63,023 nucleotides of DNA from Chrysochromulina tobinii. Lineage: Eukaryota. The DNA lies in NCBI GenBank assembly GCA_001275005.1, contig JWZX01003152.1:1-63023 (forward strand), in the 5' to 3' direction. Both the position numbers and the translations under genes were made by a program. This document shows positions 17,986 to 63,023 of the stretch, piece by piece; position 1 is the first letter of the stretch; the number at the start of each line of letters is the position of its first letter. The notes below the pieces were generated by a model that made no database searches, was not told the origin of the DNA, and worked only from the letters and a program-made list of their open reading frames with translations.

Positions 17986-18014
17986 GGCTCGTCTTCGTCG
18001 GCGACGGCTGCTGA
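16947..18014 (+). CDS. JmjC/cupin-8 2-oxoglutarate dioxygenase-like protein with N-terminal anchor; 3' end questionable
   Basis: WLG...TPHYD..HN..VQV.GSK.W.LWPP and L.AGE.LYVPPFWAHAV give the HxD...H triad. Confidence 0.85.
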
Positions 18015-18852: not shown

Positions 18853-19335
18853 GAGAGCGCCGCGCTCAAACCGCGATGTGCAAATTTACCATGTGGTGTG
18901 GGTACTTTGGCAAAAGCCCTTGTTGGTTTGAGAGATGTTCACGTTCACACAGGACACTTCACATTTAGCGTCTTTGAAGACGAGATATGCCGGGTCGTTG
19001 ACATGCGCGAGGACGGACGGAGCCAGCGTCTCTTCAGGGGGCGGTTAGTATATTTTTCCTGGCAGCCCCCTGGCGCGCCCATCTGGGGGTTCACCGCCCA
19101 TGTCGGCGGGCGCGCTCCCTCCCGAGTTCATATTTGGGTCTCGCCGATCTTCTCTTATATAGGCTGTTTCTCAGCTCTCTGCCTGCATGTGTCTCAGTTG
19201 AGGCCTGGCCTGTATTGTATTGTTTTGTCTTCACGGCTGTACTGCTTACGTGTTGTGTGTATTAACATGAACGTTGTGAGAGGTCTGCGACAGGTCTGCG
19301 ACTTGAGACACTACGAGAGAGCCGCGCGGAAGAAC

Positions 19336-42581: not shown

Positions 42582-42717
42582 GCGCTGTTCCTGTTGCGGC
42601 CTGAGGTTGATCCTTCTCGGATCATCGGATTTAGGATCATCGGATTTAGAGTTCGGCGCTGTTCCTGTTGCGGCCTGAGGTTGATCCTTCTCGGATCATC
42701 GGATTTAGAGTTCGGCG
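42582..42717. repeat. Tandem duplication of a ~60-nt unit with an internal 15-nt duplication
   Basis: GCGCTGTTCCTGTTGCGGCCTGAGGTTGATCCTTCTCGGATCATCGGATTTAG twice; GATCATCGGATTTAG extra copy. Confidence 0.9.
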
Positions 42718-42882: not shown

Positions 42883-45192
42883 ATGCTGCCCGAGGCCAGC
42901 GAGGACATTCTGAAGACACTGGACGCGACCCACGCCTCACTGGAGCAGCAACGAGCTTGCGGACCGGCAGCGACACCAGCTAGAGCGACCATGGATGTGA
43001 TGCTCTCCTCTCCAGACGCGGCTGCATCGCCACAGGCGGCTACCGCTGATATCGCCATGCTTCTGCGCGCAGCGGAGCAGCACCGCAAGCTCGCGCAGCT
43101 CCTTCCCGACGAGGACATGCGGCGTGAGATGCTCGCCGAGGCCGACAAGCAGGAGGCGCAGGCGCAAGCGCTCATGCGTCGCGGAGCGGCTGGAGCTGGT
43201 GGCACGTGGCAAGACCTCGACGCGCAGCGGCTCTCTGTCGGTCCACAGCAGCCGCCGCCGCCGGCCCCTGGCGTCGGAAGTTTCGTCGACCGCAACGGCC
43301 GAGTCGTCGAGTTCCAGAAGGGGCCTGTGGTCGAGCCGGCCGTGGCGTCCGCGCCGCCCCCGGGCGTCGGCAACTTCGTCGACCGCTACGGCCGTGTCGT
43401 CGAGTTCCACAAACGGCCTGCAGACGAGCCGATCGGCGCGGGGAGCTCCGAGCTGGCTGCGAGCGTGGGGGGGGCACCCGCGCCGGCCGGCTCGACGGTG
43501 CGTGCGGTGCTGCGTCGCGACTCGGGCGGCCTCTTCAAGCTCGGCCTGCGCGAGGGCGCAGGAGGCGTGCTCATCGGCCGTCTGCCGTTGTCGGACGCGG
43601 AGGGCGACGAGCGCACGCGGCTGTGCGAGGGCGACCTGGTGCTCGCGATCAACGGGCTACGAACGAATACGATGAGCTTCGAGCAGCTCCGAAGCTACGT
43701 CAAGGAGTGCCCGGGAGCTCTGCATCTCGAAGTGCGCCGCATGCCGGGCGGCGTGCCGGGAGGGGCACCCACTCGCGATACGGTCGGCGGCGGCATGGGC
43801 GGCGGCGGCGGCGGCATGGGCAGCGGCGCCGAGCCGGATCCCCTCGAGGCCGTTGCTGGCGGCGTCATACACGGCCTCGAGTCGCTCAAAAAAGGGTTTC
43901 GGCAGCTCGTGGACTCGAGAGAATCTCGGGAGAATCTCGAAAAGCTCCGCGATCTGGGCGACGAGCTCAAGGAGAAGACCAAGGGCTTTTTCGAGCAACT
44001 GGGCGGCCTAGGCCAGGGCGGCAGCGATGTGGGCGGCGGCGCTAAGGGCGGCGGCGGCATGGGCGGCGGCGGCATGGGTAGCGGCGGCGGCATGGGTGGC
44101 CGTGGCGCCTCGACTGGCGGCGACCCTGATGCCCGTTACGGTTCCCACAATGTGGATGAGCTGACCGCGCGAGCGGAGGCGGCCGCGCGCGCCGCGCGCG
44201 CTGTGGCGAGCACTGCGCCAGCTCCGGGCTCCCTTGGAGGAGTAGGGGCGGTCGCATCGCCGCTGCTGCACTCCAATGCCGCAGATAGCACCTCGATCTT
44301 ACCGGTACCGCACAGCGCCGGCACCCGCCCTGCCGTGCAAGCCCCTCCGATGGGTGCGCCCTCCAGCGGCGCGCGTGCGGGCCTGTTTGTGGACCGCTAC
44401 GGCAATCCTGTCGAGTTCCAAATTCGGCCGCCCGCCGCACCCGCCGACCCTTCATTCTTCCCATCGAGCTCCCCAATGAGCTCGATGGGCGGCGGCGTAG
44501 GCTTGGTGGATGGACCCCATCACGGCGCCGCCGGCTTGGTCAACACCGGGCGCATGGGCGGCGCCGGCGTGGAGCTGCTCGATGAGGCCACACAGCTCGC
44601 TCTCGCTCTCTCTCTCTCTGAGGCTGAGTTTGCAGCCAGCGCTCATCACGGCGCCTCCGGGGTGCCGAGACCAGTGCCGTCTGCGGAATATCTCGGCGGT
44701 CTGTACCCCACATCGCCGCCGCCGCCGCCGCCGTCTGACGGATCGATGCCGCCACCTTCGATGCCGCCGCCGCCACTGGACAGCATGGCTGCACTCTACT
44801 CAATGACGCCACCATCGCAGCCGCTGCCTTTTCCAGGGGTGTACGGGGGCAACGGCAACGACCACTTTCCCCAGGCTAGCCCGCCTCCGCCGCCCATGTA
44901 CCCACCGCCACCACCCGGCCCGCCGCCGCCCGACGGCATGTACAGCGGAGCCATGTCCGAGGAGGAGCTGCTGCAAGTCGCGATGCACCTCTCGCTCGCA
45001 GAGGCGCAGGCGCAGCAGGCGGCGGAGCGTGCGGCGCTCGAGACGGCGCTCCGAGCCTCCGCCACCGAGACGCCTGTGGGCGACCTCCACGGCGAGCTTG
45101 GTGCCCAGCCGCCCACGATCGCCGAGGACCTCGCCACCGTGTTTGCCGGTCGGGTGCCTGCCCCTGCGGTGGAGCCACCAAACTTCTGCTAG
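42883..45192 (+). CDS. PDZ + UIM-containing Pro/Gly-rich adaptor (start 42883 or 42991)
   Basis: PDZ: LCEGDLVLAING..T..MSFEQL...LHLEVRR; UIM-like DEATQLALALSLSE, EEELLQVAMHLSLAE. Confidence 0.75.
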   Translation: MLPEASEDILKTLDATHASLEQQRACGPAATPARATMDVMLSSPDAAASPQAATADIAMLLRAAEQHRKLAQLLPDEDMRREMLAEADKQEAQAQALMRRGAAGAGGTWQDLDAQRLSVGPQQPPPPAPGVGSFVDRNGRVVEFQKGPVVEPAVASAPPPGVGNFVDRYGRVVEFHKRPADEPIGAGSSELAASVGGAPAPAGSTVRAVLRRDSGGLFKLGLREGAGGVLIGRLPLSDAEGDERTRLCEGDLVLAINGLRTNTMSFEQLRSYVKECPGALHLEVRRMPGGVPGGAPTRDTVGGGMGGGGGGMGSGAEPDPLEAVAGGVIHGLESLKKGFRQLVDSRESRENLEKLRDLGDELKEKTKGFFEQLGGLGQGGSDVGGGAKGGGGMGGGGMGSGGGMGGRGASTGGDPDARYGSHNVDELTARAEAAARAARAVASTAPAPGSLGGVGAVASPLLHSNAADSTSILPVPHSAGTRPAVQAPPMGAPSSGARAGLFVDRYGNPVEFQIRPPAAPADPSFFPSSSPMSSMGGGVGLVDGPHHGAAGLVNTGRMGGAGVELLDEATQLALALSLSEAEFAASAHHGASGVPRPVPSAEYLGGLYPTSPPPPPPSDGSMPPPSMPPPPLDSMAALYSMTPPSQPLPFPGVYGGNGNDHFPQASPPPPPMYPPPPPGPPPPDGMYSGAMSEEELLQVAMHLSLAEAQAQQAAERAALETALRASATETPVGDLHGELGAQPPTIAEDLATVFAGRVPAPAVEPPNFC

Positions 45193-45519
45193 TTGTCGCT
45201 GCTCAAACACTTTACGCATTTCCCTTGCAGCGCGTCGCATCCATTAGTTTGGAGTGTAGTAATAAGTCCTCTCTAGATTGGCCACTGCACACATGCCACA
45301 GCACACAGGCCGGGCGCCACTGCCCGACTCGGACTACTGCCCCGAGTGTCGAGTGCCGGGACGCGTGGGCGGCTACTAACCGAACTCGTAACTGGAAACT
45401 GCACTTAATCGAGCTAGAGGTACAAAGCTGGACCTGTGCCAAGCGACCGGCCCACACTCCAAGGGACCGTCAGCAACGGCAAGCACGCCGCGAAGCCTCA
45501 ATTCCTGCCCGACGGCGCT

Positions 45520-46089
45520 TCAGTGCTCGAGAGCCGTGACGAAGAGGACCGAATAGTCCTGCTTTAAGCAGCCTTCGACTGCCGGCATGGGTCCGCCCGG
45601 CTTTACGGGAAAGGCGTTGGGATTGGCGTTCGCCGGTGAGCCACCAGTGTACAGAGCCGAGCGGCACGGCAGATGCGTCACGTCGTACAACGTCGCACCA
45701 CCAGAGAGCTCCCAAGAGCCATCAGCTCTCACGCTCAGGATGCTTGTGGTTTCGCGTCCGCCAGTCACCTGGTATTTCATCGGCGGCAGCGGGAACTCTG
45801 GCGCCTCCATGATGAGGCCATGCTCCTCCAGCCACCAGCTGTGGCTGTCGAAGCTCCAGCCCGCTGGCGCTCTTCCAGAGCCGAGGTCCTTGTTGAACCG
45901 CTGAAGCCGAACACCTCGAGGCCCTGGATCTATTCTCCAGATGCCCCAGAGGTGCGCGTCCTTGCCGCTCGTTGCGCGGTTGCCAGGCCCCGTCGGATCG
46001 ATCGCCGCAGCAATGAATTGGATGTCGCGCAGGGCCTTCATCTCTTGCGCTGAGACGACGAGTGCGAAAGCCAGGAAAGCTCCAGCCAT
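45520..46089 (-). CDS. Secreted/targeted hypothetical protein
   Basis: Signal peptide; Trp/Gly-rich globular motifs WR.DPGPRGV, WWLEEHGLIME.P, LYDVTHLPCRSA. Confidence 0.75.
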   Translation of the reverse strand: MAGAFLAFALVVSAQEMKALRDIQFIAAAIDPTGPGNRATSGKDAHLWGIWRIDPGPRGVRLQRFNKDLGSGRAPAGWSFDSHSWWLEEHGLIMEAPEFPLPPMKYQVTGGRETTSILSVRADGSWELSGGATLYDVTHLPCRSALYTGGSPANANPNAFPVKPGGPMPAVEGCLKQDYSVLFVTALEH

Positions 46090-46235
46090 GCACTGGTCCA
46101 GGAAAGTTCCGAGGAATTTCGAAGGGGAAGCCTTGTTGAGGGGTTCCCCCAAATTTCTCCAAATTTCCCCAAATTTTGTCGCGTGTGCGTTTGATCTCGC
46201 GCCGCGCTTCGGATTCGTCGCTGGCCGCGCTTCGG

Positions 46236-47582
46236 ATGTCGTCGCATGTGCGACCAGTCTTCGGGCAACTAGATGGAACGCGCAGCTCGTTGTGGGAATC
46301 TCTCAGGCTCGAACTGCAGCTCCTGATCTTGGAGTCAAGCCCCGGGCTCACGCTCACAACCATCTACAGCGCGACTGCTACTTGCAAGCACTGGCGGCCG
46401 GTTCTTGCGCAAGTGCGCCACGCATACCTCCGAACTCCGAGCGAAGCGAATGCAGCAGCATTGCGGCTGTGCCCCTCCATCGATCACGTTGCGTGCTGCA
46501 TCATAGACGATCCAGCGTGTGAGCGTGAAGATGGTCCAACTCGTGACGAAGAGGAAATGTCGGCACGTATTCCGTTTGCACTCACGGCCCTGCCTGCTCT
46601 CCGTTACATTACGATCGGCCATTGGGATACCAACCACAACGGATCGCATCCAGACTCTTCTGATCTGGGCACGAAAGTGCTCTTGGCGATTTGCCATGCG
46701 CGCCGTGCAGGCGCTTTGAATGCGCTCGAGCACATTGAGCACGGCTGTCACGTCTGTCGAGTGGTACAAGTGCGAATTTGCCGTCAAGTCCTCGCCGAAG
46801 GGCACACGCACATCGATCCTGCGGACGCCGATGGCTACGCGATGTCCGCGGCAAAGCAGAGCTGCATTTGCAAGGAACTGGTTCGGTCGTTGCCTGCGCG
46901 CAACTGTCTTCAGTATCTCACGGAGCACAGTCTGTGCCTGCCTAAACCCCAGATAGCTCAACACGCCATCCGAGCGGGGGCAAAAGACCTCCTCAACAAG
47001 GTGCACCTTGGGTGCTCACGGAATGGAAATGGCAGGCACCGCCCTCCTGACGGGTTTGTGGGAAATTGGGTCGGAAAAGAGTCAAGCGAGACTGGCGCGG
47101 GACCTGGACCCTCCTACTTCGCAGAAAGCATGAATTGGGCACCGCTTTTCGCAGACAGCGCGGGCGCCACCTACTTCGACGTCGTGGTGCTGACTGCCGG
47201 CTATGGTTGTAAAGATGCCGAGGAATACGTGGCCACGGTCAACCTGTTTGTTCGACATGGTGGTGTGCCCAGTGAGCCGTTACGTACAGCAGCCCGCGAG
47301 GGTCGGGTCGCAACGATGCTGGCCGAGTGGGCAGATGGATCTCCGGAGGCAGGCCGATTGGATTGCCTGGCGGTGGAGAAGTGGCTGGCGGGCCCGATTG
47401 GCACAGCTCTTTTGACGAAGGAGTGTCTTCGGACGGTGGAGGGCGCTGAGGATGAGGGCGAGGAGGAGGAGGGCGAGGAGGAGGAGAGTGAAGAGGAGGA
47501 CGAGGACGAGGAGAGTGAAGAGGAGGGCGAGGAGGACGAGGACGAGGCCGTGGACGAGGACGAGGACGAGGACGAGGAGTAG
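46236..47582 (+). CDS. F-box-like protein with acidic C-terminal tail
   Basis: WESLRLELQLLILE...ATCKHWR F-box pattern; E/D tract 47449-47579. Confidence 0.6.
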   Translation: MSSHVRPVFGQLDGTRSSLWESLRLELQLLILESSPGLTLTTIYSATATCKHWRPVLAQVRHAYLRTPSEANAAALRLCPSIDHVACCIIDDPACEREDGPTRDEEEMSARIPFALTALPALRYITIGHWDTNHNGSHPDSSDLGTKVLLAICHARRAGALNALEHIEHGCHVCRVVQVRICRQVLAEGHTHIDPADADGYAMSAAKQSCICKELVRSLPARNCLQYLTEHSLCLPKPQIAQHAIRAGAKDLLNKVHLGCSRNGNGRHRPPDGFVGNWVGKESSETGAGPGPSYFAESMNWAPLFADSAGATYFDVVVLTAGYGCKDAEEYVATVNLFVRHGGVPSEPLRTAAREGRVATMLAEWADGSPEAGRLDCLAVEKWLAGPIGTALLTKECLRTVEGAEDEGEEEEGEEEESEEEDEDEESEEEGEEDEDEAVDEDEDEDEE

Positions 47583-48258
47583 GGGTAGGGCGAGGGGGAC
47601 GAGGCTCCTTTGGAGGAGATGGCGAGATGCACATTCAACATTGCACTGCTGTCGTGTAGACTGCGCATCAAATCGTATCTGGCTACGGCGTGCCGACTCG
47701 CGTCGAGCGCCCGTCTAGCGGCCCGAATGCAATGCGGGCGGGGCGTGTCATGAGTAAGATCGTGTAAAACGCACGTGCATTAATCGTATGCCGGAAGTGT
47801 GAGGCCGCCGGAACGCCGATTTACTAAAAATACGATAAACGCCGGCTACGGCTGGGTACGCCTATTCTCGCCCTACGCGTGCGCCGCTGCCTCGTTGGAT
47901 GCGCCGTGACCCGTGTGTAAGTCCGTGTGTGATCGCTGATCCGCCTAAAGCTGAATCCCGAGAGGCGCTAAAGCCTGATCGGCGCGGATCGTACCGCGAA
48001 TGCATCCAAGCCGTGGCAGTCGTGTTGGCTGTTGCTGAGTCGACTGACGACCCCTGAGAGCCTCTGCGCTGACCGCTGTGAACCTCTATGCGCTGTGTGA
48101 GCCTCGGTGCGCTGTGAATTCCAATGAGAGAGGCTTCTGGTCGCAGCGCCACAGTGGGTGGGTCCCACACCGCTTTGAAGCTACGGCCTAGCCGTAAGGC
48201 TACGCACTCGCCTGCTTCCGTCTCCCCCAGACCGGATGAGAGTTTGACCGGACGTTTC

Positions 48259-48954
48259 TCACGGCAGCGCGCCCGCGAGATAGCTGTTGAGCTCACTCAT
48301 GCTGATGCTTGCGCTGCCATCCGTGTCCATCTTCTGAAACGCGGCTTCGAACTTATCCTTTCCCTCGCCATCGCTCACATTGTCCATGCCCAAGGCGGCG
48401 CGGACCGATTCATTCTTGCGCAGAGCGATCAACAGCTCTGCCTTGGACAGGCGGCCGTCTTGGTTCTTGTCGATGAGGTTGAACACCTCAGTCACCCGAG
48501 GATCGATGGCGCTCACCGGCGTCTCCACGATGGGAGCGGCGGCGATGGCGACGGCACGCTCGTGCTCCGGAGCAGAGGTGACCTCGCCGCCAGATATTGA
48601 CTTGGCAGGCGGCGGAGCGTTCTTCTTCGCGGCGAGGTGAGCGAGAACATCCTCCATCTCCTTCTTGAAAGTGGCGTCGTCTGACCCAAGCAACGCCATT
48701 CCCTTGATAAATTCGTCGAGTTCAAGCTTTCCATCGCTCTTCTTCTGGCTATCCAGCATGTGAAAGAGCATCGTCGCCTCCATCGGATCGTCTCCGCCCT
48801 TTTGTGTCGCCATGAACTCGTTGATGTCCACATAGCCATCGCCATCAGAGTCCATGGCCTGAAAGACCTTCTTGCACAATCCCTTGCGGTCGACTTTGCC
48901 AGGTGGCTTGTCGCCGCTCGGCGCCGCGTTGGATGTTGACGCTGCACAGCCCAT
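48259..48954 (-). CDS. N-acylated four-EF-hand calcium-binding protein
   Basis: MGCAAS (myristoyl/palmitoyl-type start); DSDGDGYVDINE, DKNQDGRLSKAE, DTDGSASISMSE. Confidence 0.88.
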   Translation of the reverse strand: MGCAASTSNAAPSGDKPPGKVDRKGLCKKVFQAMDSDGDGYVDINEFMATQKGGDDPMEATMLFHMLDSQKKSDGKLELDEFIKGMALLGSDDATFKKEMEDVLAHLAAKKNAPPPAKSISGGEVTSAPEHERAVAIAAAPIVETPVSAIDPRVTEVFNLIDKNQDGRLSKAELLIALRKNESVRAALGMDNVSDGEGKDKFEAAFQKMDTDGSASISMSELNSYLAGALP

Positions 48955-49066
48955 GGTCGCGACGGCGGCGAGGGAGGCCCTCGATGGACGCAAAAACGAC
49001 CCTCGAGCGAAACGTCGTCCTCCCGCGCGCTTTCGCGGCTCTCCACTTCCGCGCGAGCGAGCACAC

Positions 49067-49585
49067 ATGAGCACGAAGGCGTCGCCACGCAAGCGCGCAT
49101 CACCCGGGTCGTCCAAGAGCGGCTCAAAGGCCTCCAAGATCACACGCGCCGATGGCTCTCCAGGCACGCTCGGAGCCCTCTTCCGGAAGGCACGCACGGC
49201 GCCGCCCTCAGCCGAGCGGTCGAAGCTGGCCGCCACCGCTGCTGAGCCCGAGCATGAGGACCCCGCCGCGCTCGAGGACGAGGATGATGAGCCAGTGCTC
49301 TCGCCCGCCACCCCCGCCGCCGCCGCCCCAGATGCCTCATCCGTGGCGGGCCCCGCGGCTTCACTGCTGCTGCCGCTGCCACCACTGACCGAAGCCGAGG
49401 AGAAAGAGCTCAAGGCCTTTGACCTGAACATGAAGTGGGGACCGTGTGCTGGGATCTCGCGCATCTCGCGTTGGGAACGTGCCAACGACTTCAACCTCGA
49501 CCCGCCCGCGCGCGTCATGGAGCTTCTGCGCGGGCGCGAGAACGACAAGTTCAACAAGTCGCTCCTCACGCGACTGGGCATCTGA
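49067..49585 (+). CDS. POLD4: DNA polymerase delta subunit 4 (p12/Cdm1)
   Basis: L..FDL..KWGPC.GISR..RWERA....L.PP..V. Confidence 0.88.
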   Translation: MSTKASPRKRASPGSSKSGSKASKITRADGSPGTLGALFRKARTAPPSAERSKLAATAAEPEHEDPAALEDEDDEPVLSPATPAAAAPDASSVAGPAASLLLPLPPLTEAEEKELKAFDLNMKWGPCAGISRISRWERANDFNLDPPARVMELLRGRENDKFNKSLLTRLGI

Positions 49586-50091
49586 TCGGTCAGATGTCTG
49601 TCTGAGATCTCGACGTCGGGCAGCTGAAGTGACGATCAGCCGACGGGGTGCATACAGGTGTACGAGTAGTCGTGCAGCGTGTTCCGAGGCTGAGTACCGC
49701 GCGTGTTGAACACCAGAGTTACACAAAGAGAAAGACGGATCGAGGATTTTAGGATACAACCACGCGCCCACACCATGAGTCCGGTCGAACAAACCAACCG
49801 CGAACACTGAATACGAACACACCGATCGCCGTCCTCTACATTTACGACCTCGTCTTCATGTACCCGTGTCGCGCCGGCGCCGCGTTCACTTCTGCCTCTC
49901 TGTCCATGCACACTGTCGTCACTCAACAAGCTACTCGCTCCATTGTCAGCCTGCTGCTGAAACTAAAGCTGTTCAAGACACCGCACGAGCCGCTCGGACC
50001 CCGAAGCACGGAAGCCGCACTCGCTCTCGCACTTGATTAGGAAGTTGTTGGTGGTTGATTTGTGGACTTGCCACATGAGGAAAAAGGTTCA

Positions 50092-52650
50092 ATGCCAGCC
50101 GACGAATCGCTAGTCGAGGCGTCCGTGAGCGACATCAAACGCGTGCTCAACCTCGAATCCATGGAGGTCTACCACAAATCGCTCACACCGTTGAAGAGCA
50201 GTTCGTTAGATAGCGCGCCAGATGAGGGCGAGCTGCGTGAGGTGATCGAGGAGCTTATCCGCACAGAGAGCACGTTCCTGCGAGACATGCGCTTCACTGT
50301 GAGGAATTTCGCTCTGCCGCTGCGCGAGTTGCTCGACGCGGCACAGGCAAGAGCCATCTTCTCCAACCTTGCGCAGATCCTCGAGCTGCACGCGCGCCTC
50401 GTGAGCGCGCTGCCAGAGCCGGAGGCACGCACCAACCTGCCGACGAGCTCTGCTGCGCGCTTCAGCAGCCACGCCACGTCGCTCGGCTCGCGGACGAGCG
50501 GCGGCGACGACGGCTGTGGCGGCGTGTGCGGCGCGCACGGCACGAGCTCTTCGTCTGTCGCGGCCAAGGCGCAGATCGTTGCGAGCGCCTTTGTCAAGCT
50601 ACAGCCCTTTTTCAAATGCTACACCTCGTACTGCGGCAACTACCCGTACGTGTCGGGGGCGCTGCTCAAGGCACGCAGCAGCCTTCGCGTGTCCTCCTTT
50701 TTGGAGGGCATGGAGCTCACGCACTCGATATCGCTCCAGGCCCTCTTGTTTCGACCGGTGCAGCGCTTGTGCGCCTACCCGCTGCTGCTGCAGCGGGCTC
50801 TCAAGCACGTTCCTCAGGCACACCGGCTGCATGCGCCGGTGGAGGAGGCCTTCAGCGTGATGCAGCAGATGGTGACGCAGGTGAACGAGCAGATGCGCGC
50901 ACAGGAGGCGCAGGTGCGCATGCTGTGCGCCCTCCTGTCCGACGTCACGAACGCGCCACCTGTCGAACATCTTCTAGCGCCCGATCGCTCTCTTGTGCGC
51001 GAGGCAGTCGTCCACATGAAATTGACGAAACTGACCAGCGGCAGCGCCTCTGGCAGCGCCTCAGGCAGCGCCTCTGGCAGTGCCTGTGCAGCAGCGGGGT
51101 GGCAGAGCGGCAGCTGGCTTGAGGGCGAGGATGACGACGCCTCGATCAGCGCTGCCCACCACGACGCCTCGATCAGCGCTGCCCACCACGACGCCTCGAT
51201 CCGCGCTGCCCACCACGACGCCTCGATCAGCGCTGCCCACCACTCGTTCAAGCGCTGCACCAGTACTCCCAAGCCCCTTGGCACGCCCTTGGCCGATGCG
51301 CTGCAGTGGGGGCGGCGGCGCGAGTACAGATGGTACGTGTTCAGCGACATGCTCATGGTCTGCCAGCCGCAGCTGAGCCTCTTCGGTGGCGAGAAGAAGA
51401 AGCTGGCGTGCCGAACCTTCTTTGAGCTGGCCGATCTGCGCGTCGTGCCGAGCACGGGCTCCACCCTCTTCCCACAGCCGGCTGCAGGCGTCGTGCCGAG
51501 CACGGGCTCCTCCCTTTTCCCACAGCCGCCTTCATCTCCATCGCAATCTCCATCGCAAACTCCATCACGAGAGGCTGATGGCGCCGTGTCGGGCCTCTTC
51601 GGGAGCATCAGCGCCACGGACGCCCAACACGGCGCCAAAGACGAGCCATGGACGCCCAACACGGCGCGGGGCACACCCGCAGGCTTGAGCCGCGTGCCTT
51701 CGAGCTTGAGCGCTCTCTCTCGGAGCGCCTCGATGAAGAGCGTCATCAGTGAGTGCTCGCGGAGCGCCTCGATGAAGAGCGTCATCAGTGAGTGCTCGAG
51801 GAGCGCCTCGATGAAGAGCGTCATCAATGAGTGCTCGAGGAGCGCCTCGATGAAGAGCGTCATCAGTGAGGATGAGGAGCTAGCCGAGGCGGGCGGAGGC
51901 AAGGCGCAGAAGCCCGAGGTCCTCCGCCTGATCTACCACGGCGCCGAGTACAAGTGCTGGGCCACCTCCGAGGCCGAGATGGCGGCCCTTGTGCACCAGA
52001 TTAGCCAGCTGCAGCGAGAGCATGCAATGCGGGTAGAGCGCAACTCGCGACGCTCGTTCTCGTTCAGCTCAGCCGATCGGCAAATGAGGGCCGCCGCAGA
52101 TTGTGATGCGCTTTGGACCCCCCCGCAGAGCCATGTGCCCGACGACACGCCGTCCCAGGGGCTTCCCAAGAGCCCGCACCACCCTGGACCCTCACCGCGA
52201 CATTCACATTCACATTCACACCACCCTGGACCCTCACCGCCCAACAACCTGCGGTTGCGGTGGGGCGGTATAGCTCGGCATGCGTTGCCCGCGTCGCTCG
52301 CATCCTCTCGGCCTGTGAATGTGAATGAGGCCTCGCTTGCATGCATCCGTTGCCCGCATGCATCGCTTGCATCCGAGGCCACGGTCGATGGCGCCGCCAC
52401 TTCCGCTGCACGCTGGCAGGCCGCGCATGCCACCGTCGCTGCGGCCCCCGAAGAGGAGACTCTACTAGACGTCCTTGCTGAGGCGGCCACCGCTTCTCGG
52501 CGTGCAAAGCGGACGAAGCACGCGGCAGCCATTCGAGTGCAAGCTGCCTACCGTGGCAGTTCATGCCGCCAGTCCGCCGCCACATTCACATTCACATCCA
52601 CTGGCCGCCAGTCCGCCGCCGTTGGCCGCCACTGCGCCATGCTGCATGGT

Positions 52651-52715
<65 letters not shown>

Positions 52716-55700
52716 TGAGGATGAGGACGAGGACGAGGACGAGGACGAGGATGAGGAGGGGGCGGCGGCGGAAGACGTGATTCTAGCCGTTGAGCCGGCG
52801 CCCACGGCGGCGCCCACGCCGCTGCGGCCGCCGTTTCGAAGGACGTCGATCTCCCTCGATCTCCCTCGCGGCGTCCATCAGAGCTCTCGATCTCCCCCGC
52901 GATCTCCTCGGAGGTTGACGCATGAGCTCGGGGAGCAGATTGCCAGATTAGGCGAGCTGCGTATCCGTCCGCTGCCGCCCGCAATGCCCGAGCCCCCGCC
53001 GGGGTATGAGCGCCGCCTCGGCGTGATGCCTCCGCCCAGGCTCTTCCCGTTACCCGTCGACAAGTGCGCGTCGGAGGGTTCCGTTCCCTCTCGGCCTGTG
53101 AATGTGAATGAGGCATCGCTTGCATGCATCGAGGGCTACATTCCCTCTCGGCCTGTGAATGTGAATGAGGCATCGCTTGCATGCATCGAGGGCTCCGTTC
53201 CCTATCGGCCTGTGAATGTGAATGAGGCATCGCTTGCATGCATCGAGGGCTCCGTTCCCACTCCCGCGCCAACGAGCGGCTCGGCGGCTTCCCCACTCGC
53301 TGCGATGCCCTCGATCTCCCACGATCTCCCTCGATCTCCCACGGCGCCACCGCCACTCCTCTCCGAGCTCGGCATCTCCCACGATCTCCCTCGATCTCCC
53401 GCGGCGCCACCGCCACTCCTCTCCGAGCTCAGCCGCTCGCCCGGCTCGTCGCCTCGAGCGTCGCCTCGGGCGTCGCCACGGGCGTCGCCTTGGGCTTGGC
53501 CACCGACGGATTGTGTATGGAGCATGCCCGGACACCCCTCGCCAACAAGAGCCTCACTTGATCTCCCACGATCTCCCTCGCCAACAAGAGCCTCACTTGA
53601 TCTCCCACGATCTCCCTCGCCAACAAGAGCCTCACTTGATCTCCCACGATCTCCCTCGCCAACAAGAGCCTCACTCGATCTCCCACGATCTCCCTCGCCA
53701 ACAAGAGCCTCACTTGATCTCCCACGATCAGTGGACACGCGCTTCGTTCATGCATCCATGCGCTTCGTTAATGAGGCCGACGATCGCCCATCAGTGGGCA
53801 CGCGCTTCGTTAATGAGGATGACGATGGCCCATCAGTGGACACGCGCTCGTGTATCATCCATGACGACGCATACGAAGCATCCGCCGCCGCGACGCGCGT
53901 GGCGGCGGCGACACGTGCGGAGAAGGCCAAGCACGAGCGCCGTAATGAGCGCCGAGCGTGCCGAGCGGCGGCAGAACGAGGCGCTGTACCGAGCACATCA
54001 GCGCCGCCCTTGTGGATGACGTTTGCGATCCAGACGCTGCAGCACGCGCAATCTCAATCCAATCTGGAGCACGCGCAGCTGAGCGTGCGGCTGGAGGAGG
54101 CACGTCGGCTCCTCGAGAGCGAGAGACAGGCGGCCGCTCGGCGCGAGGCTGCGCTGCGCTTCGTCAACAGGCTTCGTCAACAGGCGGCCGCGCGGCGCGA
54201 GGCTGAGCTGCGCCGCCAGATGCGTGAGCGCAGTGAAGCTGCAGAGGAGCGCGAGGCTTCGGTGCTCGCGGCGGCGCGCGCCCGGGAGCACGCGCTTCGT
54301 CAACAGGCGAGTGCCCGGGAGCACGCGCTTCGTCAACAGGCGAGTGCTGCCAAGCTGAGGGCTGAGGAGGCGAACGGCGCTCGGGATGACGCTCAGGACG
54401 GCGCTCGCGTGCCTGGCATTCGCGACGAGCGCCTTCGCGCGCTCCGAGCGTACTTCTCGCCTTCATACTCGACGCTCAGCACGACGCGCAAGAGCCCCGG
54501 AGGCCCGTCGAGCGCCGTCTCGAGCGCCGGCTCCGGCTCCTCCGCCTTTACGCCAGCGTCCTCTGCCACCTCACCGGATGCCTCGATGCCGCCCGAGTGG
54601 CCGGGATCTACAAGAGGTTCGTCAAGAGGTTCGTCATCGACGCCACCCGAGTGGCCGAGTTCGTACTGTGCGCCGCCCGCGCACCCTTGGAACGTACCGG
54701 TCGCTCTGCATGCAAGTGCTCACGATGACGCCCGCGCACCCTTGGGACGTACCGGTCGCCCTGCATGCAAGTGCTCACGACGGCGCCCTCCCCCCTCTCC
54801 CCACAGGTGCGCACCCTTGGGACTGGGTCGTGCCGGTAGTGCCGGTAGTACAGGTCGTGGACTTGTGGCTCCAGTACGCCGCGGCGACGCTCGTGCAGGC
54901 CCGTTGGCGCGGGCGTCTCACACGGCGCGCGCTCCCGAAGCATGAGCGCCGTGCTGAGCACGAGCGTCGTGCTGAGCATGAGCGTCGTGTCGAGCATGAG
55001 CGTCGTGCTGAGCATGAGCGCCGTGCTGAGCGGCCTTCTGTGCTCTTCGAGCAGTTGGAGCAGCTCCGGAAGTTTGTGCCGCCGGACCCGGGGCGATGGT
55101 TCACAGCCCTCTTCACACGCGTACCCCCCGCACTCGCGCGCTGCTGGCCGCCGCCTGCGGAGGCAGCCGTCCCCCTCCGAGCGCGCCGTGGTGAGCACTT
55201 GCATGCAGGGCTTTGGGAGGCAGCCGCCCCCCTCCGAGCGCGCGAGATCGTCGGCGAGATCGCCGGTGAGTCGTTCAAACCCCACAGCCTCGGTCTGGGC
55301 GCCGTCTCGGGCGACCTTCGCGATGTACTCTCTACCGGTACCGCCTCAGGCAGCACCTTGGAGGGCAGCTGCTCAAGTGCGAGCGCCGTCTCGAGCGTTC
55401 ACGGATTGGACTCGAGGGCGATCTCGCGGGCAATCTCGAGGGCAATCTCGCCAGACGGCGGCGCGCTGTCCAACGCCTCGCCCCGTGGTGCTGATGGCCT
55501 GCATGCAAGTGCTCACCACGGCGCGATGTCCAACGCCTCGCCCCGTGGTGCTGATGGCCTGCATGCAAGTGCTCACCACGGCGCGATGCCCAACGCCTCG
55601 CCCCGTGGTGCTGATGGCCTGCGTGCAAGTGCTCACCCCGGCGCGTTATCCAACGCCTCGCCCCGTGGTGCTGATGGCCTGCGTGCAAGTGCTCACCACG

Positions 55701-56138
55701 GCGCGCTGTCCAACGCCTCGCCCCGTGGTGCTGATGGCCTACATGCAAGTGCTCACCACGGCGCGCTGTCCAACGCCTCGCCCCGTGGTGGATCGCTGCG
55801 TGCCTCGCCGTGCGACACGGCCGAAGATGCGCTCGGGCTCGGCGCTCGACCTCGATGCCGGAGATGAGGCGCTTCTGTGGAAGGAGGACTGCCTGTGGAA
55901 TCAGAGGCAATCCGAGGCAATCAGAGGCAATCAGAGGCAATCAGAGGCAATCACGGACCTGCTGTGGAAGGAGGACTGCCTGTGGAACGAAGCGCTTCTC
56001 TCGGGCCGTATGACGCTCGCGAGCGCCGTCTCGAACGCCGAGGAGGAAGCGCCGTCGCGAGCGCTCGAGTGGAGCATCACCTCCGAAGTCTACCAGGCGA
56101 GCGACAGCAAGGTGACCTCGTATTACACTTTGGCCTGA
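50092..56138 (+). CDS. Dbl-family RhoGEF (DH + PH-like) with IQ motifs and many tandem repeats; predicted intron 54668-54806, 3' frame junction unresolved
   Basis: EELIRTE..F, IFSNL, Y..YC.NY, L.RPVQRL..YPLLL; IQ motifs AAIRVQAAYRG and AATLVQARWRG. Confidence 0.75.
53074..53259. repeat. 57-nt x3 tandem; the minus strand reads like an intron 3' end; extra copy at 52304-52347
   Basis: Minus strand TGCATGCAAGCGATGCCTCATTCACATTCACAG|GC. Confidence 0.9.
53536..53728. repeat. 39-nt x5 tandem built on GATCTCCC units
   Basis: Encodes PSPTRASLDLPRS x5. Confidence 0.92.
55460..55790. repeat. 60-nt x5.5 tandem carrying the TGCATGCAAGTGCTCACCACGGCG cassette
   Basis: Units are directly visible at 60-nt period. 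Confidence 0.95.
55875..55987. repeat. (AATCAGAGGC)n filler flanked by a perfect 26-nt direct repeat
   Basis: CTGTGGAAGGAGGACTGCCTGTGGAA at 55875-55900 and 55962-55987. Confidence 0.95.
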
Positions 56139-56313
56139 ACAGCTGCCTCCACTGTGAAGACGAGAGTAGTCTCTAGAGCGAGCGCACATGTAGGCGCGTA
56201 GTGGTGCGTTCTCTTCTGTAGGTAACGTCTGAGCCTAAGGATGCATGCATATCCAGACTTCAACATGCACACGAAGTCATCCTCACGAAGTTGTGTGTTT
56301 TTCCGGTTTGGAA

Positions 56314-57879
56314 ATGGAGCATCGGTCTTCATGTGGCAGTGGTGGCGGCGGCGGCCGGGTTTGGCTTGGCCTCGCTTTTGAGCGGCGTGGCCACGTCGGG
56401 CGCCCCCCATCATCGTCGCCCGAGGCGCTTCCCACGCCGCCTACAACCCTGCCAGAGCCGCCGCCGACCAGAAAGTCAAAGTGGTCCTTCCAGCCGGAGC
56501 TGATCGGTGACACTCCCCAATTTCCCGTGCCACTCCTGGGACGGGAAGGCGTCCGAGCACGGAACAAAATCCTACGGGTGGTCATCTCCCGCGAGGAGCT
56601 CCAAAGCGCGGCCGCGCAATTGAGAGCCCTTGTATCCGAGCTCGAGGTGCAACACGAGAAGCCAAGCCTCGAGCTCCAGATCGGGTACAAGCTTCTGGAT
56701 GGCGTCATCACCGTCCCACAATGTTTGAAAGCGTGGGACATCAAGAATAATGGCGAGATTACCAGGGTCGGCATACGCAATAGCCTGCGCAGCCTGGGGT
56801 TCACGGGCCTCCCGAGCGACGGCGATGCTCTCTTTGACCAATGGAACGGGCATCAGGGTATGTCACTGCTTGCATCACTGCTTGCGGAGCCTCCGATGGC
56901 TATTGATTGTGTTGTCCATTGTTGATTGCTACCAGCTTTTGGTTACTGTTGAGTGCTATGGAGTGCCCTTTGGTTACTGTGTTCGTTGCTGTTGATGGCT
57001 GAGTGCATTGCCTCCAATTACCTCTCCCTGCGAACAAGGCCGTCACCGATCCTGATCACTTAATGAACACTGCCCACTGCCACTGATTACCACTGATCAC
57101 TGTCTACTGCCACTGATCGCTGCTCCTTGCCAGGCGTCTTTCTCGACTCGAAGACAGTGACCAATAGCCTGAGCTTGGCGCAGGCGAAGGCTCAGAAGAA
57201 GAGGCAGGCGTTTGACCAAAGACGCAACAAGACTGAGGCGCTACGGGCCGTGGCGGCAAAGGCGGAGGAGGCGGCCAGTCTGTCTGACCGGGCTACTGTG
57301 CTCGAGGAGGAGCTGAGGCAACTGATCGCCCGCATAGACGAGCGTGCTGACATTCGCCTCGGCGCATTACTGCAGGCCCGTATGGTAAAGCCGAGCGCCG
57401 TCGTGACCAGCTGGGGCTCGAGCCGTGTTGAGCACATCGGCGAGCTCTCGAAGAGGGACTTTCGGCGCGCCGTGCTCCGGCTCTTCAACGGGCTTGATCC
57501 GGTCGGGAAAACAAGAGAGGACAGCAAAGGCTCGGTGAAAACGCCCGCCACCGCGAGACTAGCGCGTTCAGCTTCCCAAAGGACGTACCAGTCGGAAGCT
57601 GAGCTAGCGGCGGAGGAAGCTGCGCTTGCGGCGGAGATTGACGGTGTCTTCGATACGTTCGACGCGGACCGTAACGGCTGGCTGGATGCGGACGAGACCT
57701 TGAGCATGGTCAGGACACTACAGGGCGCCGCCAACCAAGCAACGGGCGAGCGGCGCATGAAGGAGAAAGAGTCGCGGTCGGTACGCTCGAGAGCTGATCG
57801 GCTCGGGGTGGTCGCGCTTCGCGAGGTGAGGGATGCTGTATGTGAACATTCGTCGAGACACACCGATTTCGAATGCTGA
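56314..57879 (+). CDS. EF-hand/coiled-coil protein; intron 56858-57133
   Basis: WDIKNNGEIT, DADRNGWLDADE; G|GTATGT..GCCAG|GC joins two ORFs in frame; intron has CCACTG-type repeats. Confidence 0.75.
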
Positions 57880-58265
57880 ATCGTTGTGCGTGGTCTAGGA
57901 TTCGATTTGTGCATGATACACTGTCAGTGTGCCGACGATCCGACTCAGTGTCGAAACCTCCGAGAAAGACGTAGAATAACACGGCAATCGAATGGGCAAA
58001 TGTGAAATGAACCCCGATGCATCGTGTGACTGTAATCTTCTGGTCACTTGTGCTGTACCACACTGTCGAATGTGTGTTTCGGCTCACGAGTGAACACCCC
58101 CTGCGGCTGACGGTGCGAGCCCAGGTGCGTGCACAAGAAATATTTGCGTGAACAGACTGTGTGCATGCGCTTACAACGCTAACTATAAAAACGGTACTGA
58201 ACCACAGGAATCCTAACATTCTCAAACATATGAAAGGCGTGCGACGCACTCCGCGTCACATTTCC

Positions 58266-59642
58266 ATGACAAAGAATAGCAAGTCGTCAGCGACCCACAA
58301 GGGTAAGAAACCGTCGCGCCGAGCCGCAAGCGAGGAAGAGCTGCAGGGTCTCAACGATATCGACGAATTGGCTGCAGCTGGCTCACAAAGGAGTGGACTG
58401 AGCACCACGATATCGTTTGGGATTGTGGCCGTCCTGCTCGCAGCTGCGGGATGGATAGCATCACGCCCATACCTGTATCATGATCGACTGCCGCCGGGCT
58501 CTGTGGTGGCCTTGAGGAGTGCTGTCGCACTGCAAACTCAGCCGCCAACATCATCATTGTGGGCATCGGCGGATGCAGAAAATGCATCGGCCGTGTTGGC
58601 AGTGGCAAGCGCCATCACCGCAGCCTCGCCGCCAATGGCAAGGCAGCTAGCCCCCCCGCCTCTGCCGCCGCCGCCTCCTCCACCCCCTTCACCTCCTTCT
58701 CCGTCACCTCCGCCGCCGCTGCCATCAACACCGCCGCCATCGCCGCCACCGTCAGCATCTCCTTTGGCGCCGCCAACGGTCTTACCTGCTGCGCCGCTGG
58801 CTGCGACGCTGAACGCGCGCTTCAACCGCGATGTGACCAAGTTCGCCTCGCTCGAGGCGGGAGTGCTCATCCATCAGCTTGATGGGTTCCAGGATGCAGA
58901 GCTGCCGTGGGCACCCTGCTCGGGCTCGAGTCACAGCCACAACTGTCAAGGCACGCGCACCTCGTCGCGCAGGCACCGCGTCTCTTGCTCCGTGATTTTC
59001 GCGGGGCTCCATCGCAAGGATGCGAGCATACCCACCTTCAGCGTCGATGCGGGCGTCGTGCTTCGGCCCTCGATGGCGAACGTGCTGTGCGGCTACGGCA
59101 ATGACGGCTCGATCGACGATAACCGTCCGCTGATGTGCGAGGGCGGCTACCCATACTCCGAGTCGAGGTGTGTGCCTGGCTGCGGTTCGCCGCCCGCCTT
59201 CTGCGACCCGCGCAACCCCCACGACGAGGGCTCATGGACGACCTGTGGCGTGAGCTGGGGTGCCAAAGGCATTCGGCCTTGGCGTGGCGTGGACCTGCCC
59301 GGCTTACTCGACGTGTTCGCCTCGAAAGGAGAGCCGTTCACCGGCGTAGGCAACTTCAAGGGGTACAATGAGATTGTCGTGGACCCTGTGCCGTGGCTGG
59401 AGCACCTGCCGCACAGCGTCGAGGCCATCTTCATGGTCGACTGCACCGCGGGTAGTGCCCAACTACATTATGGCGCCGCGGACGGCATGGCGACCGCCAT
59501 GGACTGTGCCGAGGCCCAGGCCGCCGCACGAACCATGCACGCGGCCTTTCTGCGCACATATCCTGAGGTCGACCCGGCCACGTTCCCGCTGCTCAAGCTG
59601 CGCACGAATCTGTGGGACGAGCCATTCGAGGAGATCAGATGA
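58266..59642 (+). CDS. Type II membrane protein with Pro-rich stalk and Cys-rich extracellular domain
   Basis: Basic N-terminus, TM FGIVAVLLAAAGWIA, SPPP stalk, globular domain with YNEIVVD and VEAIF. Confidence 0.75.
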   Translation: MTKNSKSSATHKGKKPSRRAASEEELQGLNDIDELAAAGSQRSGLSTTISFGIVAVLLAAAGWIASRPYLYHDRLPPGSVVALRSAVALQTQPPTSSLWASADAENASAVLAVASAITAASPPMARQLAPPPLPPPPPPPPSPPSPSPPPPLPSTPPPSPPPSASPLAPPTVLPAAPLAATLNARFNRDVTKFASLEAGVLIHQLDGFQDAELPWAPCSGSSHSHNCQGTRTSSRRHRVSCSVIFAGLHRKDASIPTFSVDAGVVLRPSMANVLCGYGNDGSIDDNRPLMCEGGYPYSESRCVPGCGSPPAFCDPRNPHDEGSWTTCGVSWGAKGIRPWRGVDLPGLLDVFASKGEPFTGVGNFKGYNEIVVDPVPWLEHLPHSVEAIFMVDCTAGSAQLHYGAADGMATAMDCAEAQAAARTMHAAFLRTYPEVDPATFPLLKLRTNLWDEPFEEIR

Positions 59643-60182
59643 TGTTAATGTGTTGGCTGTTGGGGTGACGGATGGGTTAGTCAAGGCGCACAAGGCTCAA
59701 GGGCGATGTGTGGATGTCTCACGAATGCAGCACGAATGGCATATGACGAATGAATATGTTCACTTGGTCTGTGTCCTTGTTTGTTTACATCCTGGTAGAT
59801 TTCCTACCTACGAACGGTACGAACCATGGTACCCGCGGGTCGGCCGGTCTTTGAGATCTCCGTCTATGTGAACCGTGTGTGTCATGGTGTGTGTACACGT
59901 TCGCTTTGCTTAACGTTTGCTGTTTGCGTCCGGCTCCCCCCGGCAATTGCCCCCCGGGGTCTCCGAGCGACGTGATATGTTGGAGTGGGACGGGACTCGA
60001 GCACCATGCTTAACATGCTGTCGAGTACTGACTCACGGTGACCGGACCCTGCCGACAGTGACTCCCGGCAGTACATGCCGACAGCCTATCCGCCGTTTTG
60101 TCGTTAAAGGGTTCACACACGACAGTGCCATAGCACTCACCGGTGTTAACGTTCACACGAACTCTGTCGGGCGCTCGGGAAA

Positions 60183-61184
60183 ATGGAGGCTCGCCTCCTT
60201 GCGGACCTGGAGCGGTTGCAGCTCCACGCTCCGTGCGAATCCACGGACGTGCACGCGCTGCACTACTGGGGCCTCTTCTCAATGTTGAATCAGCTCGTCC
60301 GTGCCACCATCCACTCATTTGCGCACGGGCGACGTGCCTGCTTTCGGGTCCCAAATTTGTGGTCGTATCAGCCAGCGCGCGGCTGTCGAGAGTCACTGCT
60401 GACCAACCAGAGCAGTGCATTCAGCTGCTACTTTGCGAGCGCGTTTTCTTGCGATCGCCAGTGCCGACGTGCGCCTCTTGAGCCCTTTCGCGGCGTGGTC
60501 GATGAGGCCAAGGGCATCTGGCGTTTCGAACACGGTTGGCCACAGGCGGGCGAGATCGAATACGTCGTCGGAGGTGAGATGCGGATTTTGGCTGCGCGCT
60601 ACACTGGCCTCGATTTCCACGCGATTCGGTCCGCGGTCACGCGGTGGGCCTTTCGACTATCGCCTCGGGTGGAAGCTCATTTGCAGTCGCTGCGCCATGC
60701 GAACCATCTCACTCCTCATGGCTATGTAGCGGTGCACCTGCGCTTGAGTGACAAGCTGCTTCTGGCCTCCGAACGGGCAAGGAAGGTGCCACTCTCGGCC
60801 TTCGTCGCTGCGGCCGCGGAGCTCGCGGCGACACGAGCGACGCCGATCCTGCTCTTCACCATCTCTGCCGCGGAAGTGATTGCGGACCTCAACCACATCC
60901 CAGACACTCCGACGCTCAACCTGTCGCGCTTCCGCGTGCCAGCGCATCTCGCGAATACCGCGGAGCGCACATCGTGGATCGTCAAGTCGACTGACGTTCA
61001 CGCGAACGCATTCAACGCGCTGGCCGACATGAAACTGCTCTCCGAGGCTGCCGGTGCCGTGGTGACCTTCTCTTCGAACATGGGTCGTTTCCTTCATTAT
61101 CTCACGCTCTCAGAGCAGCGGGAGGGCCGGATGCGTGTGCGCTCGATGGACTGGACCTCGTTTGCGCCCGAAGAGGTCACCTGA
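60183..61184 (+). CDS. GT23-like (alpha-1,6-fucosyltransferase/NodZ-like) protein; 5' end may be incomplete
   Basis: VAVHLRLSDK (cf. VHVRRTDK), D..LLS.A...V.TFSSN.GR, V.SMD. Confidence 0.7.
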   Translation: MEARLLADLERLQLHAPCESTDVHALHYWGLFSMLNQLVRATIHSFAHGRRACFRVPNLWSYQPARGCRESLLTNQSSAFSCYFASAFSCDRQCRRAPLEPFRGVVDEAKGIWRFEHGWPQAGEIEYVVGGEMRILAARYTGLDFHAIRSAVTRWAFRLSPRVEAHLQSLRHANHLTPHGYVAVHLRLSDKLLLASERARKVPLSAFVAAAAELAATRATPILLFTISAAEVIADLNHIPDTPTLNLSRFRVPAHLANTAERTSWIVKSTDVHANAFNALADMKLLSEAAGAVVTFSSNMGRFLHYLTLSEQREGRMRVRSMDWTSFAPEEVT

Positions 61185-62481
61185 GAGTCTCGGCGCAGCT
61201 CGAGCAGCATAAGGCAGATAGGCGCAGGCGGAGGCTCGCGCGCAGGCGGAGGGCGTTTCATAAAAGCAAAGGTTCGCCGCCACCCGGTACTTTCCCGGTA
61301 CATCGTGTCGTTAACAACAACACCATCGCTTCATGTATCATTCAGATTCATCATGCACTAGGGCTTTGAGCTCATTTGTCCTCCGTGTGGAAGGGGATCG
61401 TGCGCTCTGAAAACCATAGAAAGAGATTGGTGCTCTTCATTCGTTCACGTATTCGGCTCTACCCTCTACCATGTCGAAAACTATGTACCCTTGTTTGCTT
61501 GTACCGATGCGAGGTGCCTTGTAGCTTGTTAAGCGCCGAGTTCGGGCGCGCAGCAGCCCGACGACGACGCGAAACGGCGTGCCACTCGGAACACTTTGTT
61601 GATGGTGTTGAGCGTGGTTTCCTCGCCATATCTACCACCGATCGGATCCGACGCGGCTATGTGTCATGTCCTCGACCGTGGTCGTACATTTTACATAGCT
61701 GGTCGCACGGGTTACGCCGACGTTCTTGGACGTACGCGCGACGCTCGTAACACGTTTCTTTTTCTGTTTTCATTTTCAAATGTGTATAATGTTGCTGAGG
61801 CAAGTGCGGGCGCAAGGCAAGCCGCATGGCAAGCCGCCTCCTGCACCGCTCGCGCCGTCCCGTCCCGCTGCTGCTGCTGCTGCTACTGTACTCATCAACA
61901 CGACGCGCAACAGACGACCTCTCCCGGACCCCCAAGCACACGAGGGCCACGCAACAATCCATCACCAATCGAATGCCACAAGACAATCACCATGGACAAT
62001 CACATGGACGGACAGGTGTAACCGAATGGGCGGGGGCCCGTTCACGACAATGTCACGTCGCGGTACATGTGTCGATCCACGATCGAAGACAGCCGTGCGC
62101 GTGCCATCGGTAACGGTACGGCCGAGAACCCGAGTAAGGGCCGAGATTGGGGCCGAGATTGGGGCCGATCGTATTTGCGCGTGCCATCGGCACGGCCACA
62201 ATGTGCAAACATCATGCTGACATGAATGGAATCCGCACGCACAGATCTCGAATTGAGATCTGAATGAGGGTTGAGGGCACACAAGGAGCCATAGGTGCAC
62301 ACGGCCGAGCTACTGCTGTGCGACACCACATGAAGGTTGTCTGGACAAGGTGCCAGCTGGGCGTGGCTCACAATCACAAACCCGTCGCCCACCCTGCTGC
62401 TCGGCTCCACCGGTCGCCTGCCAGTGCGGCGATACCATTCGCTTCACACCTTACACGCTCACAGTAGGATTAGGCGGTTCT

Positions 62482-63023
62482 TCAGACATCCGGAAGCTCG
62501 AGCGTCTTGTCGGAGCTTTGCCCTCGCCGCCGCCACTGCGTTACAGGTGCAGGCGCCATTGAGAGAGGGCTCATCGCATCGATGACCGAAGATGGCGTAC
62601 AAGCTGACGACGAGATCCCCCCAGACTGTGGCGTCGGGTCCGAGAATAGAACCTCCGGCTGATCTCGCCCAGTTGCCACGATAGTCTTGGCCGTGCCGCC
62701 GCCTTCCCCATCGGTGCCACCTTCTGCTCCGCCCCCGTCGCCTCCGCCATCTCCTCCTCCATACCCACCGCCCCCTTTTCCACCGCCGCCATCTCCGCCT
62801 CCACCTTCGCCGCCGCCATCATCCCCACCACCACCACCATCCCCACCACCATCCCCACCACCACCATCTCCTCCGCTCGTTGCGCGTCCTCCCTCGGCTT
62901 CGCGTTGCGAGAGCTCCTCCCATGCCTGCAGGTGTGCTTGCACGCGTAGCCAAGGCAGCATGGTTGGGTCGATGAGGTCCGCCACGATCGAGTAGAATGG
63001 CACGCAGATGAACTTGAAGAAGC
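62482..63023 (-). CDS. C-terminal end of a class I cyclic-nucleotide phosphodiesterase-like protein, entering from the right edge
   Basis: (G)FFKFICVPFYSIVADL...L.AW resembles the last PDE catalytic helices, followed by a Gly-rich tail. Confidence 0.6.
   Translation of the reverse strand, partial: FFKFICVPFYSIVADLIDPTMLPWLRVQAHLQAWEELSQREAEGGRATSGGDGGGGDGGGDGGGGGDDGGGEGGGGDGGGGKGGGGYGGGDGGGDGGGAEGGTDGEGGGTAKTIVATGRDQPEVLFSDPTPQSGGISSSACTPSSVIDAMSPLSMAPAPVTQWRRRGQSSDKTLELPDV

Follow-up and report, generated by a model that had tools for sequence, protein, structure and literature searches.

The DNA analysed here is a 63,023-nt stretch of Chrysochromulina tobinii (contig JWZX01003152.1, positions 1 to 63,023), referred to below as the window, and its subject is a family of short introns that share a 23-nt motif with a CTCAC core and recur in unrelated genes. 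The family intron (about 70-75 nt when complete) is often met with in pieces, the piece bringing one splice site and a duplicate of the adjoining exon giving the other. Judging from the sequences of these insertions, we lean, on balance, to the view that the pieces have been pasted in by template copying during the repair of DNA breaks, and not by a transposase of their own.

Nine copies of the motif had been pointed out in the window by an earlier, sequence-only reading, and all nine were recovered with three mismatches or fewer, the number expected being 0 (100 shuffles). They represent four independent sites (A to D) and not nine, because the copies at 54707 and 54762 are one 55-nt tandem duplication and those at 55500-55763 one 60-nt array of 5.5 units; the several stages of intron formation that had been seen in them come down to four events, in which no order of stages is readable. 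Site A (1789-1920, plus strand) is a predicted GT-AG intron of 132 nt that opens with a copy of the start of the following exon, has an in-frame stop at 1807 and contains one motif copy (1842-1865, plus strand, 1 mismatch), followed by an 18-nt pyrimidine unit in triplicate and CACAG; its predicted excision lengthens the open reading frame (ORF) from 302 to 492 amino acids (aa). Site B (54668-54806, plus strand), in a RhoGEF gene, is a predicted GT-AG intron of 139 nt whose interior has been doubled once with a 55-nt period, so that it holds motif copies B1 (54707-54730, plus strand, 3 mismatches) and B2 (54762-54785, plus strand, 1 mismatch, followed by a pyrimidine tract and CACAG). Its predicted removal shifts the frame, yields an ORF of 1889 aa and brings in an IQ motif (Pfam PF00612, E 1.9e-4, above the cut-off) of the exon on its 3' side (54807-54994, plus strand), which is in frame only after splicing; the first ~17 nt of this exon would be the template of the intronic copies. 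Both sites are of the 3'-half type described below.

Host sequence is duplicated beside each site, as the sequence-only reading had held: 14/15 nt at A (1787-1801 against 1919-1933), 14/15 and 15/15 nt at B (copies at 54679 and 54734 against the exon at 54809), 26/27 nt at C and 30/30 nt at D. Site C (55160-55243, minus strand) has an antisense motif (55184-55207) between 27-nt host duplicates (55160-55186 and 55217-55243) with a period of 57, and the 57 nt added keep the frame. Site D (55459-55790, plus strand) is an AG-less motif core with a 30-nt host duplicate and a period of 60, expanded to a 60-nt x 5.5 array with five motif copies, across which frames 1 and 2 are both open. Sense copies followed by a pyrimidine tract and CACAG do sit inside predicted introns (A and B), and antisense or AG-less copies do add 57 and 60 nt, both as first described. 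The window has four sites per 63 kb (Poisson range 1.1-10.2), from which thousands of sites genome-wide are an extrapolation only.

Half-introns completed by host duplications

The wider scan for the motif that the sequence-only reading had proposed was made on metagenome contigs with an exact 20-mer and gave at least 135 loci (all site counts below are among the matches listed), in a sample that was chosen by the motif, mixes strains (the haptophyte and relatives) and consists of short-read contigs throughout; viral contigs gave no exact motif match. From 225 raw sites, 63 were dropped as duplicates or as too close to a locus end, leaving at least 162 distinct sites in hosts from many Pfam families, similar introns thus lying in unrelated genes. 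A flanking duplication score of at least 16 was reached at 92 of these 162 sites, while control positions reached it in 10% of cases in the loci (n=1000) and in 2.5% in the window (n=600). The phenomenon is real and probably genome-wide. By class, there are 104 sites with just a 3' half, 19 with just a 5' half, 10 with both and 29 with neither. As a separate observation, motif sites look gene-clustered: a DEAH-helicase gene (locus L012, minus strand) has four motif introns within ~800 nt (near 1500, 1750-1810, 1941 and 2305 of the reversed locus), one of which splits the GETGSGKT P-loop.

The 3' half consists of the motif, pyrimidines and CAG, and is preceded by a 10-44-nt copy of the start of the next exon, which gives the GT or GC donor. 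An ungapped copy of this kind was present at 65 of the 88 single-copy 3'-half sites, against 5 of 1734 (0.3%) in a control with swapped exons, and at 75 of the 88 when gaps were allowed (control 0.6%). The next exon begins with GT at 71 of the 88 sites and with GC at 6, and GTRCG makes up 30 of the 71 GT starts (8% in the coding background). The duplicates (n=65) spread continuously from 10 to 44 nt, with no fixed length and longer than typical target-site duplications (TSDs), in accordance with the sequence-only reading; their mean identity is 95% and 21 of the 65 are perfect. The introns measure 63-93 nt (one of them 123), their non-duplicate part 38-97 nt, and an AG lies ahead of the donor in 25 of the 65. 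The inner end is variable, and 47 of 58 sites have 1-29 nt of filler. In 85 of the 88 the CTCAC adenosine and the acceptor are 21-35 nt apart, a distance that fits a branch point, and this adenosine is taken below as the presumed one. The frame was continuous after removal at all 32 testable sites of the 65; since the removal of one duplication period restores the prior sequence by construction, the informative part is the 19 of these 32 whose unit is not a multiple of three and needs removal.

It is very improbable that the motif is no more than a branch-point sequence of a common kind and that the duplications come from slippage or from errors of short-read assembly. Tandem repeats are indeed abundant (117 Tandem Repeats Finder (TRF) rows in the window), B and D are arrays that expanded locally, assemblies differ in copy number (loci L074 and L126), and all the data are short-read contigs; however, a 23-nt motif with nearly all positions more than 90% conserved goes far beyond a branch-point consensus, and the duplicates abut the splice site exactly, at a frequency more than 100-fold above the controls. 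Duplicate and template differ by ~5%, the differences falling at third, first and second codon positions as 18:11:9, as in real diverging copies, and the same sites were found again in separate assemblies. Slippage or artefact alone is thus insufficient, and the explanation is largely refuted.

The 5' half runs from GTACG to the motif and is followed by a copy of the end of the previous exon, which gives the AG acceptor. Such a copy was found at 18 of the 29 sites with a GTACG-type donor half (control 11/1107) and ends in AG in 14 of the 18; the frame was continuous at all nine testable sites. One 74-nt subfamily occurs in five unrelated genes; in four of these it lies immediately behind an exon end identical with the subfamily's own final 9 nt (background 6 of 5530 AG positions), and two smaller subfamilies behave like it. 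This match indicates that copying also extends to whole introns together with an older donor flank, donor flank and microhomology apparently steering the choice of target. The unit is a variable-length fragment of a full intron of ~70-75 nt and occurs as whole copies, as bare cores and as halves of either kind (3' and 5'). Of the non-autonomous cassette first proposed, a splice cassette without terminal inverted repeats (TIRs) and tied to long duplications stands, and a unit of 25 nt does not.

An orientation and frame bias had been predicted, and both are present. Among the 133 splice-competent sites, 73 are sense and 1 is antisense, 59 being without a strand call; inserts without splice signals are a multiple of three in length in 10 of 14 cases (p=0.004), compared with 27 of 68 among 3' halves. 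Inserts built in the same way also lie antisense, where splicing cannot select them (site C and positions 53074 and 55879 of the window, and loci L013, L044 and L097).

Splicing was seen for motif introns in an ABC-transporter-family gene (locus L069), where RNA contigs of runs X15-X17, without a differing letter, skip nine introns at GT/GC-AG ends. One of these is an 88-nt intron of the 3'-half type whose exon copy measures 16 nt, another has three motifs and a further one is composite; in all, three introns with the motif and a degenerate one are skipped precisely. Pieces of the window are matched by X15 as well, letter for letter, and a short X13 contig (from a related strain) covers 54504-54731 unspliced or as DNA.

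Origin of the inserted pieces

In repair copying, a break or staggered nicks would open a gene, and a 3' end would copy part of an existing family intron at another locus; synthesis would halt at a variable point and rejoin 10-44 nt back, leaving the duplication behind. Selection would keep sense spliceable inserts, plus others that are a multiple of three or non-coding, each surviving intron would be a new template, making the family self-feeding, and later slippage would multiply units into arrays. As the sequences show, the 3' half contributes the presumed branch point, the pyrimidine tract and AG, and the duplicate gives GT or GC; a 5' half brings the donor and the duplicate gives AG; removal of the unit restores the frame.

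Marks of other modes of spread were looked for. As the sequence-only reading had noted, TIRs are lacking: none is common to four regions compared, and 1-2 of 10 terminal bases are complementary in three full copies. No terminal direct repeat or hairpin is common to the full copies. Fold z-scores of -0.74, -0.19 and +1.53 and Rfam matches that were only sub-threshold and away from the motif (five loci) gave no structured RNA. As to short interspersed elements (SINEs) and target-primed reverse transcription (TPRT), both ends truncate and the longest A run in three full copies is 2; the consensus A/B box pattern of RNA polymerase III is absent from three full copies.

If the pieces were a very small non-autonomous element that depends for its movement on a transposase, Replitron-like (HUH) or otherwise unrecognised, one would expect a sharp end behind RG, a fuzzy end with donor flank and a variable target duplication. 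Replitron-1 of Chlamydomonas (PMC10288648) has these marks together with copy-and-paste spread, as has Replitron-N1, and one Rep protein has been reported from Chrysochromulina tobinii in the same paper. The 5'-half sites match such an end, with a sharp start behind AG (14/18), a fuzzy 3' end and donor tails in common, although AG is also demanded by splicing. Against this, the 3'-half sites are sharp on the opposite side, bare cores have no sharp end, and the full copies are without a common terminal direct repeat or hairpin. Replitron-1/N1 are ~0.9-3.6 kb long with terminal direct repeats (Replitron-N1, of ~910 bp, needs termini of ~50 bp), and intron formation is not reported in the accessible parts of PMC10288648, whereas the pieces described here are 25-75 nt long and either end may be sharp. 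Several unrelated cassettes behave alike, which also speaks against a transposase, and this explanation is considered unlikely.

Equally unlikely is that ordinary introner spread first produced full introns, one half of which then gave way to a copy of the adjoining exon when gene conversion, with an intron-less allele or cDNA of spliced mRNA as partner, was aborted. Full copies exist (the 10 sites with both halves), both half types can be described as a spliced junction joined to an intron remnant, and L069 339-548 is a composite of 5' half, junction copy and 3' half. An intron common to the homologous ornithine-decarboxylase-family genes L037 and L053 differs inside, the intronic copy of L053 matching its own exon, as remodelling would have it. 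Remodelling is opposed by the similarly built inserts that are antisense or non-coding and by homologous sites that are empty: L053 is without two inserts present in L037, one of which carries the motif, and L044 is without a 42-nt duplicate-plus-acceptor insert of L097, antisense and past a stop codon. Moreover, not a single base of the canonical 5' half is left at 51 of the 88 3'-half sites, fillers are common to unrelated genes, and none of the 27 fillers checked spans two spliced exons by continuing into a further one.

Several points weigh against repair copying. Five of the nine RNA-defined introns of L069 hold exon copies, some lying well within the intron and one running across the spliced junction, a finding in keeping with an intron-less template, and sites without splice signals lean sense too (9:2, p=0.065), as the remodelling of old introns predicts. 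Strand and frame calls come from a codon model trained on the same loci and checked against Pfam for 72 segments. The RNA evidence consists of contigs from three runs that possibly represent one strain and one campaign; over 44000-63023 of the window RNA cover is thin and gives no usable joint at site B, and the splicing seen is that in L069. Empty sites, another check that had been proposed, number three in two locus pairs, one of them for this motif, and are unpolarised: there is no outgroup, and loss between direct repeats would look identical to gain; in addition, L037 and L053 are 85% identical over 219 nt and may be paralogues. No donor-recipient pair was caught among the sites and no enzyme was identified, no search aimed at a transposase having been made. 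Microhomology with the consensus at the inner junction was not in excess, 2 of the 11 filler-free junctions having 3 nt or more (47 of 58 having filler), and motif divergence did not follow duplicate divergence (rho 0.04, n=58), a weak test in sites picked by an exact 20-mer.

Repair copying and the remodelling of older introns may run together. A bolder claim, put forward tentatively and with a little less than even confidence, is that of a transposase-free, self-feeding intron factory, in which break repair would paste half-introns together with the 10-44-nt duplicate that completes them, and which would have given thousands of new introns in a haptophyte lineage, invisible to end-to-end introner screens.

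Relation to known routes of intron gain

Introners that take one splice site from a TSD are known (PMC9860276; Gozashti 2022), including a marine Chrysochromulina sp. family with a 4-bp TSD and no TIR, and introner-like elements (ILEs) of Polarella and Symbiodinium also co-opt a TSD splice site (bioRxiv 10.1101/2020.10.14.339549). The insertions described here work like them, being non-autonomous, sense-biased and present in many copies, with one splice site carried and the other taken from a duplication; the Chrysochromulina introner and the present family also agree in having no TIR. Yet the TSDs of co-opting introners are 3-9 bp, fixed per family, with fixed ends, whereas here the duplicates vary from 10 to 44 nt, one end is variable and both halves of one sequence are in use. 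Similarity to both intron ends is found in the whole-copy subfamilies only, which may be introners of this kind, and the 3'-half and 5'-half sites (104 and 19 of the 162) share one end. A 2025 screen that demands similarity at both intron ends gives 0 families for C. tobinii (PMC12130899); among its families are small haptophyte ones whose mechanism is unknown, one of them with 10-bp terminal direct repeats, and it leaves ~72% of introner families without an assigned mechanism.

Intron gain by AG|GT tandem duplication (PMC3443670) is alike in that an exon duplicate gives a splice site and removal restores the mRNA; here only one site comes from the duplicate, and a non-local cassette supplies the rest. 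Further known work is found in PMC4580454 and PMC8469720. Known cases of foreign sequence between direct repeats have short repeats and unrelated fillers, and few are unambiguous, whereas here the repeats are long and one intron-derived filler recurs at more than 100 sites. Templated insertions by polymerase theta or by MMBIR (break-induced replication mediated by microhomology) are short templated patches with variable junctions, filler and microhomology. Such patches are usually copied from beside the break and are sporadic; here a distant template family is reused often and forms introns.

No account of long variable duplicates with half-introns was found in a literature search whose scope lay outside subscription journals, some supplements and the authors' sequence repository, and the 16-nt motif core occurred in 0 papers and in none of the supplements searched (PMC9860276 in part, PMC12130899 without files 13-14). 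If repair copying holds, introns would be gained en masse by a route so far undescribed. Bursts of intron gain have been ascribed nearly entirely to introner transposons, and for tandem duplication and break repair scattered cases are known; here signatures of duplication and repair are joined at more than 100 sampled sites, with failed products (antisense inserts, inserts of a multiple of three, cores) beside successful ones, and wild strains differ. The origin of new introns could thus be tested in a culturable alga by strain comparison and mutation accumulation. Screens for end-to-end similarity are predicted to miss a class of young introns, and gene models of these algae are predicted to be often wrong at half-intron sites.

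Other cassettes, the RhoGEF gene and its neighbours

The process is not confined to one motif but general, because other intron-derived cassettes behave alike. A related cassette that shares TGCATGCAAG and the CACAG end forms an antisense 57-nt x 3.3 array with host duplication at 53074-53263 (minus strand), with a further copy near 52310-52375; the two have ~8 nt past CACAG in common, suggesting that one was copied from the other. A related 10-nt-repeat cassette lies antisense at 55879-55988 (minus strand), with an 87-nt period and host duplicates of ~22-26 nt on either side. Short sense CATTCA-repeat inserts stand between host duplicates inside the RhoGEF frame (52176-52240 and 52565-52620), and the same CATTCA-repeat piece is also the tail of the antisense cassettes at 52310-52375 and 53074-53263. 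Two more duplicate-plus-insert structures, with a CAG end and without the motif, are at 42601-42674 and 43325-43417 (minus strand). In the RNA-supported GC-AG intron at 2146-2321 of L069, a different cassette (TGATTGC-type) occurs three times and alternates with copies, 21 and 38 nt long, of the exons on both sides. In L044, positions 1226-1277 and 1904-2083 belong to a gene for a family-A DNA polymerase (polymerase nu being the best match in PDB, at E 8e-12, with theta at 1e-8), at the end of which an antisense motif copy supplies the stop codon.

The host gene of sites B to D has a long first reading frame (50059-54667, plus strand) with a RhoGEF domain at aa 62-276 (Pfam PF00621, E 4e-31). 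The best named matches of window proteins are from Prymnesium parvum (40% for RhoGEF, 71% for ribosomal P0) and Emiliania huxleyi (67%), and identify the host, by homology, as a haptophyte. The alignment with the Prymnesium homologue covers the N-terminal 640 aa of RhoGEF only and leaves the C-terminal frame unsettled. Between 55330 and 56138, codon scores suggest another change of frame, located between ~55350 and 55950; a further intron or frameshift is likely there, which makes the predicted C-terminus provisional. A minus-strand gene over 54000-55400, considered on weak codon scores, was dismissed as a shadow frame in view of the plus-strand IQ motif. The RhoGEF gene (50059-55867) has been enlarged by more than 20 tandem duplications, mostly of a multiple of three, and long insertions separate the blocks conserved in Prymnesium; it has two IQ-like motifs. 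Its neighbours (3118-20328 and 48265-48930) are ordinary genes, coding for PIG-U, CDC20/Fizzy, ribosomal P0, a methyltransferase, a ubiquitin-conjugating enzyme, a short-chain dehydrogenase and an EF-hand protein.

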